This document shows, piece after piece, positions 55,300 through 61,221 of a stretch of DNA of 64,000 bases. The stretch covers positions 2,688,001 through 2,752,000 of the forward strand of contig CM000150.2 of NCBI GenBank assembly GCA_000004695.1. Direction: 5' to 3'. The stretch comes from Dictyostelium discoideum. Its lineage: Eukaryota. The notes under the pieces are model-generated. The model was not told the DNA's origin. It worked only from the letters and a program-made list of their open reading frames with translations, and did no database searches. Numbering within the stretch: position 1 is the first letter of the stretch; each line of letters opens with the position of its first letter. The position numbers were made by a program, and so were the translations under genes.

Positions 55300-56337
55300 A
55301 TGAATATTTTATTAAAAGATTTTAAATACCCAGAGTCATGGAATAAAAGCCCAAATCAAAGCAATCAATATATTGATCAAGTTTTTGAAGATACAAATAA
55401 AATTGGAATTTATGAATTAAATAATCAAGATCATTATTTATACGTAGAAAATTTATTAAATGTTACTTCTTATTTGTATCCAACCTTTGATAAAGAGCAA
55501 TTAAGATTATGTGCTACCTATTTGCATTGGTTATTTTTAATTGATGATTTTTTAGAAGACGAATACAATACAATGTCTGAAAAACAAAATGACGTTATAA
55601 AAAGTCATGCACAAATATTATTAACTGGCCAATATTTGAATAGTGATGTTGATGTGAAACCATCAGAAAAATTAACAATGTTTTTACAAAATACTTCCAA
55701 AGATTGGGCAATTAAATATAATAAATTTGATGTTCATAATATTTATATGACAACTTTATTTCAATGGTTATATTCAGTTTATCCATTAAATAAAACCACA
55801 GAATCAACCAAACCAATTCATATGGATTTATATACATTTATTCGTAAAGTTAATATTGGTGTTGCAGGTTCAATCATTGTTGGTCTTTTAGCGGATAAGG
55901 ATATTACTGATATTGATATTTCAAAAATTTGGTTAAATCCAATATTCACACGTATAATGGAAAATTCAACTATCCAAATTGGCCTTGTAAATGATTGTGC
56001 ATCCTATGACAAAGAATATGCCAATGGTGGTCACATCACTAATCCATTATACTTTTTGCAAGTTAGAGATAATTTAACATTTAATGAAACACTTAATTTT
56101 ATTGTTAATAAATGTAATCAAAGTATAGATGAAATAATTAAAGATGAGCAATTATTATTAAAACAATTAAAAGATCAAGGATATACTGAAAATCAATTAA
56201 ATCAAGTAAATATAATTTTAAATTATAATCATAATTTAATTCAAGGTAATATTAATTGGTCATTAATTTCAAAAAGATATAATAATCATGATGGTAAACC
56301 TTTTATTTTTGAAAATACAAAATCAAAATACATTTAA
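55300..56337 (+). CDS. Terpene synthase, microbial type (345 aa, single exon)
   Basis: The Asp-rich motif is [10 protein letters not shown]. The NSE/DTE triad is [10 protein letters not shown]. The overall helical-TPS length fits the family known in dictyostelids. Confidence 0.8.
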
Positions 56338-56494: not shown

Positions 56495-56502
<8 letters not shown>

Positions 56503-59094
56503 TACCAGTGTCAACTGTACCACCAGCTTTCTTTAATTTAACAGCAGATGGATCAAAGGATGGCATAATTGGAACTCCACCAGATGGAGGTGGTCTATTG
56601 GCAGCTGGTTTCTTTAATTTAACAGCAGATGGATCAAAACCCATTGGCATCATTGAAACTCCACCAAATTTATTTGGTGATGATTTTGATGGGGAAGTGG
56701 TGGTAGTGGTAGTTGAGGTTAAAGATTCACTTTCTTCTTCATCATCGTCATGTTTTGAATAACTGATTACCTCTTTAATTGCTGGATGTTCAGATAATTT
56801 ACGAGTTGATTTCTTTCTAGTAATCTTAACTTTTGGTCTTTCCAATGTCATATGTTGTAATTTCTTATAACTAGCTTTGCCACCCTCTGATTGGTCATCA
56901 TCACCATCATGACCTCTCTTTCTCTTATCATGATGAGAATGATCAATTGATGGTGATACTGTTTTTGATTGTTGTTTTTCTTTTTCTTCTTTTTCTTTTA
57001 ATGCTTTTTGTTCATCCTCTAATCTTTTATTTTCTGCTTCGGCTGCTAATCTTTCCTCTTCTGCTTTCTTTGCTGCAACTGCTGCAACTTCTTCTGCAAT
57101 TCTTTTAGCTTCTTTTTCAGCTGCTAATCTCTCTTCCTCTGCTTTCTTTGCTGCTTCTGCTGCTAATCTTTCTTCTTCTTTCTTTGCTGCTTCTGCTGCT
57201 AATCTTTCTTCCTCTGCTTTCTTTGCTGCTTCTGCTGCTAATCTTTCCTCTTCTTCTTTCTTTGCTGCTTCTGCTGTTAATCTTTCTTCTTCTGCTTTCT
57301 TTGCTACTTCAGCTGCTAATCTTTCCTCTTCTTCTTTTTTTACTGCCTCAGCTGCCAATCTTTCTTCTTCTTTCTTTGCTGCTTCAGCTGCTAATCTTTC
57401 TTCTTCTGCTTTCTTGGCTGCTTCAGCTGCTAATCTTTCTTCTTCTGCTTTCTTTGCTGCTTCAGCTGCTAATCTCTCCTCTTCTGCTTTCTTGGCTGCT
57501 TCAGCTGCTAATCTATCTTCTTCTGCTTTTTTGGCTGCTTCAGCTGCTAATCTTTGTTCTTCAGCTTTCTTGGCTGCTTCGGCTGTTAATCTGTCTTCCT
57601 CTGCTTTTTTGGCAGCTTCTTCTGCTAATCTGGCTTCTTCGGCTCTTTTAGCTTCCTCTTCAGCAATTCTCTTTGCCTCTTGTTCATCAGCTAATCTCTT
57701 CTTCTCAATTTCAGCTAATCTCTCCTCTTCTTCTTTCTTGGCTGCCTCAGCTGCTAATCTATCTTCTTCTGCTTTCTTTGCTGCTTCAACTGCTAATCTC
57801 TCCTCTTCAGCTTTCTTTGCTGCTTCAGCTGCTAATCTGTCATCTTCTGCTTTTTTGGCAGCGGCTTCTTCTGCTAATTTCTTTGTTTGTTCTTCTTCAG
57901 CTAATCTTTTCTTTTCGAGTTCAGCTAATCTATCTTCCTCTACTTTCTTTGCAGCTTCTTGAGCAACTCTGTTTGCCTCTACTTCCTCTGTCAATTTTTT
58001 CTCTTCTGCTAATCTTGATTCTTCAGCTAATCTCTTCTCTTCTGCCAATCTAGCTTCCTCTGCTAATCTCTTTGCTTCTTCTTCTTCTGATCTCTTCTTT
58101 TCGAGTTCAACCAATCTCTTTTCTTCAGCCAATCTAGCTTCTTCTGTCAATCTTTTGTTTTCAGATTCTTCAGCAGCCAATCTATCATTTTCAAGTTTCT
58201 TTGCAACAGCGGCTTGTTCATCAGCTAATCTTTTCTTTTCTTGTAATTCTAATTTTCTTTGTTTTTCTTTTTCCAATTGTTCTTGTTCTTGTTTTTGTTT
58301 TTCTTCTTGATCCTTTTTGAATTTCTCTTGTCTTTCCTTATCCAATTGTTCATTTCTTTGTTTTAATTTTTCACGACGTTCTTTTTCTAAACGATCTTTC
58401 TCTTGTTTCTCTTGTTCTTCTTTATCACGAATTTCTTGTCTTTCCTTTTCCAATTGTTCATTTCTAAGTCTAAGTTTTTCTCTGTGTTCAGCATCTTCAC
58501 GTTCTTGTCTTTGTTTCTTTTCATTGTTAACACGATCTTGTTCTTCTTTTCTCTTTCTTTGTTCTTGTTCACGCTCTTCACGTTCTGCCTCTTCTTTTTG
58601 TTGATTTAATCTCTCTTTCTCTTCTTCAATCTTTTGTTTTAATTTTCTTTCTTTCTCTAATCTTTCTTTTTGTCTTTGTTCTTTACGTTCTTTTTCATCT
58701 TTTTCTCTACGTTGTTTTGCTTCTTCTCTTTCTTTTTCTAATTTTTCAATTCTTTCTTTTTCTGCTAATGTTGATGTTACAGTTGGAGTTGTTGTTGTTG
58801 TTGGAGTTGTTGTTGTTGTGGTGGTAGTGGTAGTGATTGGAGTATGAGTTGTATCAGTAGTATTTGAAGAAGATGGTTCAGATTTTGGGTTTTCCTGTTG
58901 TTGTCCTTGTTCTACCTTTTTATCAATTTCCAATTTATTATTTTCTACCAATGTGTTTGTTGCATCATTTAAATCTTCATATGATGGTTTTCTATTGCCT
59001 AATGTTGAATCAATATCATAAATTTCATCTAAAAATAGAATTTTAATTTTAATTTTTTCAAAAAAAAAAAAAAACTCCAAGTTATTATTAACAT

Positions 59095-59133
<39 letters not shown>

Positions 59134-59528
59134 TTAAATAATAAATTTTTAAAAAATTTTAAAAACTTACCACCAAATTTTAATTTATCATCAGTAATTC
59201 TTTGAATAGTTGTACCAGAAGGAGCGAAAAAGATTGTTAATAAAGGTAACTCTGCTAAATAGAATAAAACAATACCAGTCATATGGACTTCATTCATTGC
59301 AACATCTTCTCTAAAACTAAGTAATAATGGACTCTCTTTTAATTGATCAGGATTACTAATTAATTGTTTCTCTTTTTCAATTGCAAGTGGGTCTCCTTTT
59401 GAAACTTTACGTAATGGATAAAATGATGACTCTTTTTTAAGTGTTGGAGGGTTGGATGCTGTTGTAGTCGTTGTTTCTTGTGCTGGAGTTCCATACCACC
59501 ATGAATAAAAGTAATCTAAAAGTGCCAT
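56495..59528 (-). CDS. Coiled-coil repeat protein with an N-terminal hydrophobic anchor, a tandem 13-aa AEEERLAAEAAKK repeat array and a duplicated C-terminal WH2-like motif (about 963 aa). Exons complement(59171..59528) and complement(56495..59028).
   Basis: Exon 1 reads MALLDYFYSWWYG..GIVLFYLAELPLLTIFFAP.. A GTAAGT donor follows ..KLKFG. The acceptor is TTTTTAG, giving |DEIYDID.. A long E/R/K coiled coil follows, then more than 25 copies of the 13-aa repeat. The tail carries GFDPSAVKLKKPAAN and SFDPSAVKLKKAGG. Confidence 0.7.
57040..57900 (-). repeat. Coding minisatellite of about 22 imperfect copies of a 39-bp unit inside the coiled-coil gene
   Basis: The unit is gctgcttcagctgctaatctttcttcttctgctttcttt and variants. 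It encodes AEEERLAAEAAKK on the minus strand. Confidence 0.8.
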
Positions 59529-59869: not shown

Positions 59870-60061
59870 TTTTTATTTATTTTTTTTTTTTATTTTATTT
59901 TGTCGGGGTTCCTTAGATTGGTTTAATCTAAATAAAATTTATTTTTAAATTATTTTTTTTTTAAAAAAATTAAAAATTAATTTTTTAAGTTATTTGATTA
60001 ATTATTTGTGTTTTTGAGTTTTATTATTATTATTTTGATTTTATTTTATTATTTTTTTAAG

Positions 60062-60096
<35 letters not shown>

Positions 60097-60241
60097 AAAG
60101 AAAAAAAAAAAAAAAAAAAAATTGAAAAAAAAAAAAATTATTTGAAAAGAAGGTTAGTATCATTATTTGAAATTGAAAATCCAAAGTGTGAAAAAAAGTA
60201 AAAACCCTCCAAAAAATTTTTTGATTTTTGATTTTTTTTTT

Positions 60242-60277
<36 letters not shown>

Positions 60278-60294
60278 ATAATTATTATATTTAC

Positions 60295-60899
60295 CTTAAA
60301 ATGAAGTCCAATTAAAGAAAATACTAAACATTTTAAATCTTGAATTAAATAAAACATAACTTTTAAACCTTCTGGGTCATCACTTTTTTCAACATCCATT
60401 AATGAACCAATTTTAGTTGTCTTTTTATTTTTATTTTTTATTTTTTTTAAAAAATTAAATAATGGTTAATAGAAATAAAAATAAGAATAGAAATAAAAAA
60501 GTTAAAAAAGTTAAAAAAATTTATAAAAGGAAATATCCCAAAATGACAAAAAAGGGATTTGTTATGAAATATGATGATGATAATTATCATTAAAAGTGGG
60601 GGGGGGGGGGGGGGGTATGATACATACAGAAAAAGAGATATGTTCATCTTTAAATACGATTTCAAGTTCTTGTTTACCTACAACATCAGGTTCTGGCCAA
60701 TTCTTATCATCTTCCAACATTATACCTGAATCTAAAATCACCTTTTTAATTTCTGAAATTACACCATCACTAACACAAACTTCTTTTCTAATTAAATTTT
60801 CACTTTTATAATGAGAATTATTCGCATATCTTAATTTATTTCCTGATCTAAATTCAAATTCTAAAAATTCATGACCATATTTACCTTTATGTCCAACAC

Positions 60900-60932
<33 letters not shown>

Positions 60933-61221
60933 CAAAAAATTAATATATAATTCAGTCTGATAACTGGTTACAATTACCACACCCTATTATTTCGAGTACA
61001 GTAACTATGAATATAACAAACTATTTTAATCCAACTTACTAATATCTAAGATAAAAATCATCTTTTTGTTTTTGAGTCTCTGTTTTTAAAATATCTTCTG
61101 TAGTTTGAGTTTCTGATGATGATGTAGCTGTTGCTGTTGTTTTATTATTATCATTTTCTGGGCTTGTTATATCCATGGCTGAATCAGTTGCCAATTCTAT
61201 TTTTGTATCAACATCTGACAT
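60295..61221 (-). CDS. Mago nashi homolog (exon junction complex). Exons complement(61040..61221), complement(60628..60898) and complement(60295..60420). The C-terminal end of the model is unresolved.
   Basis: The exon 1/2 junction is ..DFYLRY|[67 protein letters not shown]. Exon 3 reads [42 protein letters not shown], nearly identical in pattern to animal Mago. The donors are GTAAGT and GTATGT. The acceptors are ..AATAG and ..AAAAAG. After HFK the frame reads VNIII and then enters a 33-nt A tract without a stop, or splices at GTAAAT. Confidence 0.8.
60598..60615. repeat. G18 homopolymer (C18 on the transcribed strand) 12 nt inside the second mago nashi intron
   Basis: Direct reading. This is the only G/C homopolymer longer than 8 nt in the window. 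Confidence 0.95.

Follow-up and report, generated by a model that had tools for sequence, protein, structure and literature searches.

What is the function of a long Dictyostelium discoideum protein that is made up largely of charged repeats and resembles no named protein over its full length? The question is posed by a locus in a 64,000-nucleotide window of D. discoideum chromosome 1 (contig CM000150.2, positions 2,688,001 to 2,752,000; all coordinates below are counted from the first base of this window), for which a preliminary description had proposed a membrane-anchored spacer with a WH2-like tail. Most of what was observed there holds, and the interpretation placed on it is supported in part. 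The reading that we regard as probable is that of a cytosolic modular scaffold, whose effector end would be a capping-protein-interaction (CPI) motif that recruits or tunes capping protein, a role that we infer from the sequence of an 18-residue motif.

The locus is a real gene of two exons, encoding a 963-aa protein on the minus strand (as are all of the features described below) from an ATG at 59528 to a TAA ending at 56495. Sequence and translation place aa 1-119 and the first base of codon 120 in exon 1 (59171..59528), and aa 120-963 together with the TAA stop at 56497-56495 in exon 2 (56495..59028). Between them lies a 142-nt phase-1 intron (59029..59170, GTAAGT...TTTTTAG). Read on the gene strand it contains a poly-A run, this poly-A/T run being 6 nt shorter in assembly GCA_054883475.1. 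The intron, spanning 59170-59029 in the direction of transcription, was absent from the preliminary description. The splice model is supported because orthologues align over the junction (KFG|DEIYDID versus DELYRID), their conservation reaching the splice site of exon 1, and because gene calls made independently for three further D. discoideum assemblies agree with it, the two-exon model reproducing their 963-, 977- and 1003-aa products exactly. Use of another splice donor, at 59276, would remove aa 85-119 from the product; it was rejected since these residues are kept in orthologues. The neighbouring gene is a Mago-nashi gene, and the synteny is kept in P. violaceum. As for the surrounding literature, the locus tag DDB_G0269426 corresponds to RbdB, and the neighbouring tag DDB_G0269430 is mentioned in no paper.

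T. lacteum, C. fasciculata and P. violaceum each have an orthologue, and a full-length Polysphondylium-like contig carries a further one, the family being recovered by an index-free HMMER search with a chimeric N- plus C-terminal query. Neither the N-terminal 175 aa nor the C-terminal 164 aa gave any match in a word-indexed homology search, which missed even the D. discoideum protein itself, and the exact 963-aa sequence is absent from the protein collection searched, despite the 963-aa product called in another assembly. A profile of the N-domain retrieved two Polysphondylium-type sequences only. The succession of N-domain, spacer, CPI motif and tandem FDP motifs (FDP..V.LKK) recurs in other dictyostelids, and the N-terminally truncated environmental contigs L002-L004 carry helical repeats, then the CPI motif, then 2-3 FDP motifs. 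A LIM-domain protein of another eukaryote has the CPI motif and one FDP motif after its LIM domain. Conservation covers the N-domain, the CPI motif and the tail motifs. The spacers differ between species, those of the orthologues being unrelated and made of 21-aa EK repeats, of AEKKRLADEQ repeats or of PEVK-like repeats in which Pro accounts for 21%. The modular idea of the preliminary description holds, in that an N-terminal module and an actin-related tail, both conserved, are separated by a spacer of variable length. Its remark that no known homolog could be named also stands for the protein as a whole, since all relatives are annotated as hypothetical; Pfam searches of the homologues gave no match beyond sub-threshold noise. 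Judged by sequence, this is a previously undescribed family in dictyostelids and some environmental eukaryotes.

The CPI consensus LxHxTxxRPK(x)6P (PMC5491179, PMC4598739, PMC12803934) is found in proteins that have no other relation to one another and that all bind capping protein (PMC5491179, PMC4598739). The candidate CPI motif of the D. discoideum protein, LQHMTLERPKVKITRKKS, spans aa 843-860 (56807..56860), and its first ten residues, LQHMTLERPK (aa 843-852, with the key Arg at R850), match all six fixed residues of the LxHxTxxRPK core. When the window is translated in all six frames this core appears only once, and its chance expectation in a 963-aa protein is 1.6e-5. Across seven family sequences from at least five lineages the L, H, T and R are invariant while the flanks diverge, and the P and K positions vary (RPG, RPN, RAN, RTC). 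CKIP-type CPI motifs likewise vary at these P and K positions. The Arg that is invariant in all seven sequences is equivalent to the essential CPI Arg of CARMIL, mutation of which abolishes CARMIL binding (PMC12803934); CARMIL is itself a CPI protein bound by Dictyostelium capping protein (PMC5491179, PMC12803934).

When searched against 177,635 PDB sequences, a four-sequence CPI profile gave four matches, every one a CD2AP or CARMIL1 CPI peptide, and a seven-sequence profile gave seven, again all CPI peptides (best E=0.0011), with individual E-values that are modest at 0.001-0.5. The chains matched by profiles A1 and A6 are CD2AP (3lk4, 3aa6) and CARMIL1 (3lk2, 3lk3, 3aae, 2kz7, 3aa0), peptides that were co-crystallised with capping protein, and hhalign of the CPI region returned 91.8% probability (P=7e-7). 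Family profiles were needed for this result, as the D. discoideum CPI sequence used singly retrieved no CPI peptide from the PDB, and the Pfam CARMIL_C and CAP-ZIP models have no match in the N-terminal 175 plus C-terminal 167 aa of the window protein. The terminal Pro of the (x)6P element is Ser in D. discoideum, with a spacing one residue longer; it is kept at consensus spacing in T. lacteum, C. fasciculata, L008 and P0007, and is present one or two residues further on in L002 and L009. An AF2 model of aa 828-963 contains no regular secondary structure (pTM 0.15) and the flanks are low-complexity S/T/D/E/K sequence; the motif, which lies about 55 aa upstream of the tail motifs, is thus predicted to belong to an intrinsically disordered part of the protein. 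It is invariant among D. discoideum strains, and is followed by an extension, STRKLSEHPAIKEVISYSK (56753..56809; aa 860-878), in which dictyostelid orthologues retain the pattern (K/R)(L/I)S(E/Q)HP.(I/V)K(E/D)V. An RPEL-like reading of RKLSEHPAIKEV was rejected (Phactr1 RPEL E=4.8, Arg of RP replaced by His, no Pfam RPEL match), as was a conserved NLS, the KRKRG cluster not being kept in orthologues. The CPI motif is the strongest feature of the protein and had been overlooked in the preliminary description; the portion of the CPI-motif literature available to us holds no report of the 963-aa protein as a CPI protein.

The spacer that separates this region from the N-domain begins with a poly-threonine/proline tract (58781..58834; aa 185-202), which forms a low-complexity hinge and differs in length from strain to strain. 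It continues as an E/R/K-rich segment that is ER/K single-alpha-helix-like in composition (58202..58774; aa 205-395), degenerate (A)RLAEE(K)-type repeats with a 22-aa/6-aa indel polymorphism between strains (57851..58201; aa 396-512), and a 39-bp coding minisatellite with units AEEERLAAEAAKK (57026..57857). TRF confirms the minisatellite (period 39, 21.2 copies, 77% matches), which parses into 13 clean 39-nt units with 89% mean pairwise identity, several 36-nt units and some irregular ones; the earlier figure of more than 25 units was an over-count, about 19-21 being right. Its copy number is polymorphic, with two extra units in strains L006 and L007, and the strain lengths of 963, 977 and 1003 aa reflect in part the gain or loss of 13-aa units. 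That the spacer is variable in length, as originally proposed, is clear from these polymorphisms, and strain differences lie mostly within it (repeat and poly-Thr indels and scattered substitutions), with few point substitutions outside. The spacer is putatively helical in D. discoideum and PEVK-like in Polysphondylium.

The E/R/K-rich part of the spacer had been described as either a single alpha-helix or a coiled coil. Residues 205-395 are 63% E+R+K and 11% hydrophobic and lack both Pro and Gly; they have 0.38 opposite-charge i/i+4 pairs per residue and a heptad a/d occupancy of 0.17, and the whole helix region of 602 aa has corresponding values of 57%, 12%, 0 Pro/Gly and 0.33 pairs per residue. 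Its best-register heptad a/d hydrophobic occupancy is 0.15 (range 0.13-0.24), which provides no continuous coiled-coil seam, and a 13-residue period would place Leu 220 degrees apart on successive repeats, so that no hydrophobic seam is expected. From composition alone the region appears more like an ER/K single alpha-helix (SAH) than a coiled coil; of the two descriptions the SAH composition is borne out and the coiled coil is doubtful, although some spacers may form a dimeric coiled coil.

The N-terminus had been described as hydrophobic or TM-like, and as a membrane anchor. It is instead aromatic, with a Kyte-Doolittle (KD) value of -0.24 over the first 19 aa, and begins with a conserved peptide, MALLDYFYSWWYG (59490..59528; aa 1-13), whose pattern M..L(N/D)Y.YS.(F/W) is common to the D. 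discoideum, T. lacteum and Polysphondylium-like sequences and has decayed in C. fasciculata (MFYIIINFILSLF). On the Wimley-White interfacial scale the energies of this peptide sum to -5.2 to -7.5 kcal/mol, and it is possibly an interfacial membrane-binding or protein-docking element, through which the protein may bind membranes peripherally. A cleaved signal peptide was rejected for D. discoideum, there being no basic n-region, an Asp at position 5 and a best 9-residue/h-region KD of 0.8. The conserved core of the N-terminal domain, presumed to be a targeting domain, covers aa 33-126 (59009..59432, an interval that includes the intron); with the aromatic peptide it makes up a conserved N-terminal module about 126 aa long. 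Within it lies the sole TM-like segment of the protein, MTGIVLFYLAELPLLTIFFAP (59220..59282; aa 83-103, KD 1.9), the counterpart of which has a KD of only 1.24-1.4 in T. lacteum and two Polysphondylium-like orthologues, the best-scoring hydrophobic window of C. fasciculata being the N-terminal peptide instead. A conserved D/E-L-P-x-N, with its acidic residue and Pro, sits in the middle of the stretch, and a low-confidence AF2 model places strands at 84-88 and 99-101, so that aa 83-103 are probably buried beta strands of the N-domain and not the anchor that had been suggested. PDB sequence searches with the N-domain, by single sequence and by profile, gave no match, and Pfam searches of the N-terminal 175 aa of the window protein and of five N-domains gave none beyond sub-threshold noise.

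The tail motif (G/S)FDPSAVKLKK does occur in the two copies first reported, with core repeats MGFDPSAVKLKK (aa 915-926) and PSFDPSAVKLKK (aa 942-953) that have 30 identical nucleotides in common; both copies are invariant among D. discoideum strains. A consensus from 12 instances in six proteins, GGV.(I/M)MP.(G)F(D/N)P..V.LKK, extends the copies to GGVSMMPMGFDPSAVKLKK (56609..56665; aa 908-926) and GGVPIMPSFDPSAVKLKK (56528..56581; aa 936-953). Five residues, namely P, F, V, L and the first K, never change across the 12 instances, two of which have Ser in place of the second K. The LKK-type basic motif is present, as V-K-L-K-K-P and V-K-L-K-K-A in D. discoideum and as LKKT, LKKS, LKKA or LKKQ in homologues, where the K preceding it is replaced by T, L, M, V or Q. 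The assignment of this tail to the WH2/thymosin class does not hold up, KLKK being all that they share. Pfam WH2 (PF02205) and Thymosin models found no match at E<=10 in the C-terminus or the 12 motif instances, a profile of the tail motif retrieved no WH2/thymosin chain from the PDB (chance matches to an NTF2-like protein and ribosomal protein L11 only), and hhalign against a set of WH2 sequences gave 27% probability over the LKK part alone. Prolines stand at F-2/-3 and F+2, two of them within four residues of the Phe, and AF2 predicts no helix in the tail motifs apart from a 3-residue turn, a combination incompatible with the WH2 amphipathic helix. We regard the tail as very probably cytoskeletal, and its FDP..V.LKK repeat as a new repeated motif and a candidate short linear motif for actin or capping-protein biology.

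How would such a protein work? The CPI motif would bind the stalk of heterodimeric capping protein (Cap32/34) in the manner of the CPI peptides from CARMIL and CD2AP, concentrating capping protein wherever the N-terminal module is targeted. Capping would be weakened allosterically, in competition with V-1. How far the effector end extends would depend on the spacer, an unbroken helix with 0.15 nm per residue giving up to about 90 nm, and the tandem FDP..V.LKK would serve as a companion to the CPI motif, most likely as an actin contact via KLKK (as in thymosin and WIP) or as a second capping-protein site.

Three other explanations have to be weighed against a CPI scaffold. In the account closest to the preliminary description, a membrane-anchored spacer with duplicated WH2/thymosin-type G-actin sites links the membrane to monomers independently of capping protein. 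KLKK, present in both tail copies, is the consensus by which WIP and thymosin beta4 contact actin (PMC3397550, PMC10340426), and both Legionella MavH and the amoeba CARMILs contain CPI together with WH2-like elements (PMC10381072, PMC5491179). The tail motifs are also tandem and strongly conserved, the KD 1.9 segment at aa 83-103 is accompanied by an interface-seeking N-terminal peptide, and F-D-x-S...KLKK loosely resembles the FDKSKLKK of thymosin beta4. This account is nevertheless unlikely, given the profile searches without WH2/thymosin matches, the prolines around the Phe and the lack of a predicted helix, the non-conserved K before LKK, and an aa 83-103 segment that is modelled as strands and whose hydrophobicity is not conserved; it also leaves the CPI motif unaccounted for. 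Still more improbable in our judgement is that the CPI match is fortuitous or non-functional and that the protein is a fast-evolving, low-complexity helical one, for example nuclear, with no role at barbed ends. E/K-rich and homopolymer-rich proteins abound in Dictyostelium proteomes, the basic clusters KRKRG and RKKSTRK near the motif look NLS-like, and Pfam offers no match of any kind in the terminal regions; but a core motif expected by chance only about 1e-5 times per protein, four residues kept in seven sequences of at least five lineages while their flanks diverge, profiles that match CPI peptides exclusively and a KRKRG cluster that orthologues lack all argue against coincidence.

The third explanation concerns the tail, and we hold it as a tentative one: the tandem FDP..V.LKK would bind not actin but capping protein, as a second contact with a CSI-like role, or would be a weak basic-hydrophobic membrane element like the CARMIL MBD, the C-terminus forming one bipartite capping-protein-binding region. 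Consistent with it, the FDP motif always lies 30-80 aa downstream of the CPI motif, in every family member and in the unrelated LIM-domain architecture, and CARMIL has the CPI and CSI motifs in tandem and, after them, an MBD that is short and basic/hydrophobic (PMC5491179, PMC13208823). On the other hand, the motif bears no similarity to the CSI consensus RxDEGxEEFFxKR (EEFF is absent from the protein), and its net charge of only about +2 per motif is weak for a membrane-binding element. Although speculative, it is also conceivable that the CPI motif and the tandem (M)P.F(D/N)P..V.LKK together form a two-part module for capping protein and actin that has so far gone unrecognised and can move from one architecture to another, standing here behind the N-domain and spacer and elsewhere behind a LIM domain. 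In this family it would be carried on a molecular ruler, its length adjusted as the minisatellite expands and contracts. If so, regulated barbed-end capping or monomer delivery would be positioned tens of nanometres from the anchoring site. Amoebae are natural hosts of Legionella, and the module could be a host one that amoeba pathogens imitate, as with the WH2-like and CPI elements of Legionella MavH.

Actin dynamics are under the central control of capping protein, and current models hold that it works in cells only when engaged by CPI proteins that target and tune it (PMC4598739). Dictyostelium is a model for the CARMIL / V-1 / capping-protein cycle, and the only Dictyostelium CPI proteins discussed in those parts of the searched literature that were accessible are CARMIL and CARMIL-GAP. 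FAM21 and twinfilin are further ones. The 963-aa protein is, on the strength of its motif, a likely regulator of actin filament ends, and as a lineage-specific CPI scaffold it would give this cycle a further node in a genetically tractable organism, where a spacer that is length-polymorphic and unconstrained in sequence would offer a natural test of linker length in barbed-end regulation. Should the CPI motif not bind capping protein, it would be an ordinary fast-evolving low-complexity protein.

Among known systems the closest class is that of the CPI proteins, namely CARMIL, CD2AP/CIN85, CKIP-1, CapZIP, WASHCAP/FAM21 and twinfilin, together with fungal Aim21/Bsp1. The D. discoideum protein shares with them the LxHxTxxRPK core with basic residues clustered after it in a disordered region, a domain apart from these that presumably serves in targeting, and a remainder unrelated to other members, as is the rule in this class. 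It departs from them in an N-domain that matches no known fold and is without PH, LRR, SH3 or ADF-H, in the lack of the terminal Pro in the D. discoideum copy, and in its conserved tandem FDP..V.LKK downstream, undescribed for any known CPI protein. As in the amoeba CARMILs (Dictyostelium p116, CARMIL-GAP), which also bear a verprolin-like element, the CPI motif lies near the C-terminus of a scaffold thought to position capping protein. Unlike CARMIL, the protein has no PH, LRR or HD (by Pfam, over the N-terminal 175 and C-terminal 167 aa, outside the central repeats), no CSI motif and no PxxP-rich myosin-I-binding region, and its size and architecture are unrelated. With WH2, thymosin beta4 and WIP it has in common KLKK twice, a Phe 7 residues before the Leu and a tandem arrangement, but its tail has no amphipathic helix, its Phe is flanked by prolines and the first K of KLKK is not conserved.

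Legionella pneumophila MavH likewise unites, within one small disordered module, an element for targeting, a CPI motif and a short WH2-like element that binds actin, a likeness at the level of the CPI consensus (PMC10381072). In contrast to the 963-aa protein, MavH has the order WH2-like element, CPI motif and PI(3)P-binding domain, and its actin element is a hydrophobic helix (PMC10381072). For the spacer the nearest parallels are the SAH spacers, which differ from it in having no sequence homology to it, whereas its own repeat number is polymorphic between strains and it is replaced by a PEVK-like sequence in the Polysphondylium-like orthologue. The central helix of smooth-muscle caldesmon, with units of 13 residues, and the helices of myosin VI/X and INCENP are ER/K SAH spacers of this sort, and like them the D. 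discoideum spacer is a long E/R/K/A-rich, Pro/Gly-free putative helix of short tandem units between two functional ends.

The gene under study is read on the minus strand of a very AT-rich window (13-35% GC). Exon 1 runs from the ATG at 59528 to 59171 and is followed by a 142-nt phase 1 intron (59170-59029, GTAAGT...TTTTTAG), and exon 2 extends to the TAA at 56497-56495, giving a product of 963 aa. Enumeration of alternatives gave 63 in-frame splice models. The canonical model is supported because orthologues align uninterrupted over the exon junction (KFG/DEIYDID versus DELYRID or ELYRID), and because gene calls made independently in three further assemblies of D. discoideum give 963, 977 and 1003 aa, exactly the lengths obtained from this model. 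The gene is the convergent neighbour of terpene synthase 1 (TPS1, DDB_G0269428), to which the ORF at 55300-56337 (plus strand) is an exact match, placing the window on D. discoideum chromosome 1. Directly upstream lies a Mago-nashi homologue (window ~59907-61195, minus strand; L001 4535-5648). A Mago-nashi gene also adjoins the Polysphondylium violaceum orthologue, and local synteny is thus conserved.

The surrounding region holds several further genes. A second terpene-synthase-like gene, a tandem paralogue, sits just upstream of TPS1 (~53124-54391, plus strand), its sole uninterrupted part in the window being a 115-aa ORF (53804-54151) that resembles the TPS1 C-terminus. At the equivalent place, strains L006 and L007 carry an intact 346-aa Terpene_syn_C_2 gene and the L005 assembly a 353-aa call without a Pfam match. 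The ORF at 46250-48502 (minus strand) encodes a fragment of a calponin-homology plus RhoGEF-like (DH) protein, and that at 50717-52498 (plus strand) a poly-Q/poly-T-rich protein that is probably RbdB (DDB_G0269426), given where it lies and how long it is (733 aa in L005).

Two word-indexed homology searches returned no relatives of the 963-aa protein. The D. discoideum protein is itself absent from the word-indexed collection and from exact look-up, though gene calling in another assembly yields a 963-aa product. Including the relatives from Tieghemostelium lacteum and Cavenderia fasciculata in the query alignment did not make the indexed search return them. Its negatives are not to be taken as absence of homologues. 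An exhaustive HMMER search of 1.84 billion representatives found six: T. lacteum DLAC_05256 (513 aa), C. fasciculata DFA_02780 (1687 aa) and four metagenomic fragments. A profile search added a partial P. violaceum protein, and a metagenome scan contributed both a different protein (L009, see below) and L008, a full-length Polysphondylium-like orthologue of 631 aa (contig Ga0256900_1014368, frame 2, ~nt 80-1975) that is apparently intronless. Every named relative is annotated ‘hypothetical’, and our literature search found no paper describing the 963-aa protein or its family.

The relatives share a modular anatomy consisting of an aromatic peptide at the N-terminus, a domain of ~90 aa with 26 invariant columns (identity 44-48% for three orthologues and 34% for C. 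fasciculata), a segment of the form L.H(L/M)TL.RP..KGRKKP, and two or three copies of the tail motif (M)P.(G)F(D/N)P..V.LKK. The spacers between the N-domain and these motifs are wholly different between species, and the distance from N-domain to motif varies from 253 to 716 aa. T. lacteum has 21-aa EKADKEEKDRLAKIEADRIAK units and C. fasciculata has AEKKRLADEQEKKRL units, and the Polysphondylium-like proteins have PEVK-like units, KPVEQPKPVEI, with 21% Pro; in L008 ~300 aa of such repeats stand in place of a helix. The C-terminus of L008 bears an extra VDFRSLLKKK motif that is also found in T. lacteum, not in D. discoideum, and probably in C. fasciculata. In the last species the DFA_02780 model interrupts the conserved VDFRS(LLKK) ending and runs ~950 aa past the first FDP-type motif, through a weak TUG-UBL1 match and a coiled coil to an acidic C-terminus; it is probably an orthologue fused to a downstream gene in annotation.

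The main interest of this lineage-restricted and uncharacterised family lies in a previously unrecognised capping-protein-interaction (CPI) motif and a new motif that accompanies it. The CPI segment, LQHMTLERPKVKITRKKS (aa 843-860, window 56860-56807, minus strand), had escaped the preliminary description altogether. It agrees with all six fixed core residues of the consensus LxHxTxxRPK(x)6P. Translation of the 64-kb window in six frames gives a single occurrence of the core pattern, whose chance expectation in this protein is 1.6e-5. When a four-sequence family profile was compared with 177,635 distinct PDB sequences, all four matches at E<=10 were CPI peptides from crystals with capping protein (3lk4 and 3aa6 for CD2AP; 3lk2 and 3lk3 for CARMIL1). 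A seven-sequence profile likewise gave CPI peptides in 7/7 matches (best E=0.0011), and hhalign against two CPI peptide sequences from these PDB matches returned 91.8% probability (P=7e-7). The Arg of the motif, which in CARMIL matters more than any other residue for binding capping protein (PMC12803934), is invariant across the family together with L, H and T. In the D. discoideum segment Ser replaces the terminal Pro and the spacing is longer by one residue; the orthologues retain the Pro. AlphaFold2, run with a 4-sequence alignment, models the C-terminal 136 aa as all coil (pTM 0.15), with pLDDT marginally raised over the CPI and tail motifs, a pattern to be expected where short linear motifs lie in disordered sequence. 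Directly after the CPI core, STRKLSEHPAIKEVISYSK (aa 860-878, window 56753-56809, minus strand) is conserved in dictyostelids; its similarity to the RPEL repeats of Phactr1, which bind G-actin, is weak and non-significant (E=4.8), and the RPEL Arg is His here.

Both tail-motif copies reported in the preliminary description are present, namely MGFDPSAVKLKK (aa 915-926, window 56609-56641, minus strand) and PSFDPSAVKLKK (aa 942-953, window 56528-56560, minus strand). They have in common a run of 30 identical nucleotides, all synonymous sites included, and the two-copy arrangement is old, being also found in other genera, which together suggest concerted evolution, or gene conversion, between the copies. 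Elsewhere, on the environmental contigs L002 and L003, repeats of the ARLAEEARKAEE type are followed by LEHMTLRRPKLRSYRHAPS and three FDP/FNP motifs, and L004 encodes EKLEAERKAQEEKEKQ repeats followed by LNHLTLHRANQTGRQLPS and two motifs. The L009 protein, a different eukaryotic protein (Ga0247634_10010624, frame 1, ~nt 1-850), has a LIM domain of EPLIN type (Pfam LIM, E=3e-13); after it come the CPI-like LIHMTKGRTCLAGSTRRLPS and a single FPGAFDPKAVKLKK motif. The CPI and FDP..V.LKK motifs are therefore paired in two or more architectures, a distribution suggesting that they function jointly.

The resemblance of the tail motif to WH2 goes no further than the KLKK tetrapeptide, the cited actin-binding consensus of thymosin beta4 and of the WH2 of WIP (PMC3397550, PMC10340426). 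Neither the C-terminus nor any of 12 motif instances matched Pfam WH2 or Thymosin at E<=10, and a 12-instance profile searched against the PDB retrieved only chance matches (an NTF2-like protein and ribosomal protein L11), with no actin-bound WH2 or thymosin chain among them. Comparison by hhalign with ten WH2 sequences gave 27% probability and aligned only V.LKK and the tail, not the helix. The conserved Phe is flanked by prolines with no helix predicted there, and homologues vary at the first K of KLKK. We treat the motif as a candidate new conserved short linear motif. Contact with actin is our leading guess; the main alternative is a second contact with capping protein, CSI-like in role but not in sequence. 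Supposing that the protein is a functional CPI protein, actin binding by the tail is a tentative possibility, binding to capping protein or membrane a somewhat less likely one, and the remaining probability goes to some other role.

The D. discoideum spacer contains a 39-bp minisatellite at 57026-57857 (TRF: period 39, 77% matches) that codes for AEEERLAAEAAKK units; the repeat is as real as proposed, but the figure of more than 25 units was an over-count, 21.2 copies being found. Codon-aligned parsing gave 13 clean 39-nt units (mean identity 89%, neighbours differing at 1-7 nt), along with several of 36 nt and a few that are irregular. The minisatellite is preceded, towards the N-terminus, by an E/R/K-rich stretch of 191 aa and by degenerate RLAEE repeats that cover 117 aa. 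The helical region of 602 aa is 57% E+R+K with zero Pro or Gly, and in composition it looks more like an ER/K single alpha-helix than a coiled coil. The best heptad a/d hydrophobic occupancy is 0.15 and the 13-residue period gives no hydrophobic seam, making a coiled coil less likely, if still formally admissible. The 13-residue E/K/A repeats recall the central helix of caldesmon.

Three further D. discoideum assemblies were located via their TPS1 genes for the strain comparison proposed in the preliminary description. In GCA_054883475.1 the whole gene is identical to that of the window except for an intronic homopolymer (32 T on the plus strand, window 59097-59128) that is 6 nt shorter, and the other two assemblies encode the 977- and 1003-aa forms. 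The repeats do differ in number, the longer strains having two extra 13-aa units, and the remaining differences are a 22-aa/6-aa indel within the degenerate repeats and the length of the poly-Thr tract. Few point changes fall in the N-domain, and none of the assemblies differs in the L.H.T..RPK segment or in either tail motif. The spacer is therefore naturally length-variable and the ends of the protein are under constraint.

At the N-terminus, MALLDYFYSWWYG is aromatic and not hydrophobic (Kyte-Doolittle score -0.24), nor is it signal-peptide-like in appearance in D. discoideum. The sole TM-like stretch of the protein (aa 83-103, score 1.9) falls to 1.24-1.4 in T. lacteum and the two Polysphondylium-like orthologues, has a conserved acidic residue, Pro and Asn at its centre, and is modelled by AlphaFold2 at low confidence (pLDDT 51) as beta strands in a helix-plus-strands domain. 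As far as can be told, then, the N-terminus is not a transmembrane anchor. For the conserved 13-residue aromatic peptide, the summed Wimley-White interfacial partitioning energy is strongly favourable, at -5 to -7.5 kcal/mol, and peripheral membrane binding is possible. The observations in the preliminary description were largely right, while its WH2 and membrane-anchor interpretations are mostly unsupported.

We think it fairly probable that the 963-aa protein is a functional CPI-motif protein, and we classify it among the CPI-motif regulators of capping protein. Its C-terminal CPI motif would bind the stalk of Cap32/34, the Dictyostelium capping protein heterodimer, and recruit it to the site of the N-terminal module. 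The protein would thereby reduce the barbed-end affinity of capping protein and compete with V-1, effects that CARMIL, CD2AP and further proteins with a CPI motif are established to have (PMC4598739, PMC12803934). The spacer could provide reach, by our arithmetic up to ~90 nm if all helical at 0.15 nm per residue, and the tandem FDP..V.LKK motifs may supply an actin or second capping-protein contact.

In this the protein would work as other CPI-motif scaffolds do. It is not a CARMIL: Pfam places no PH, LRR or HD domain in its N-terminal 175 or C-terminal 167 aa, and a CSI motif is absent. It bears no relation to CD2AP, CKIP-1, CapZIP, FAM21 or twinfilin beyond the motif. Its combination of CPI motif, short actin-type motif and targeting domain brings to mind Legionella MavH (PMC10381072) and also amoeba CARMILs, with their verprolin-like region (PMC5491179).
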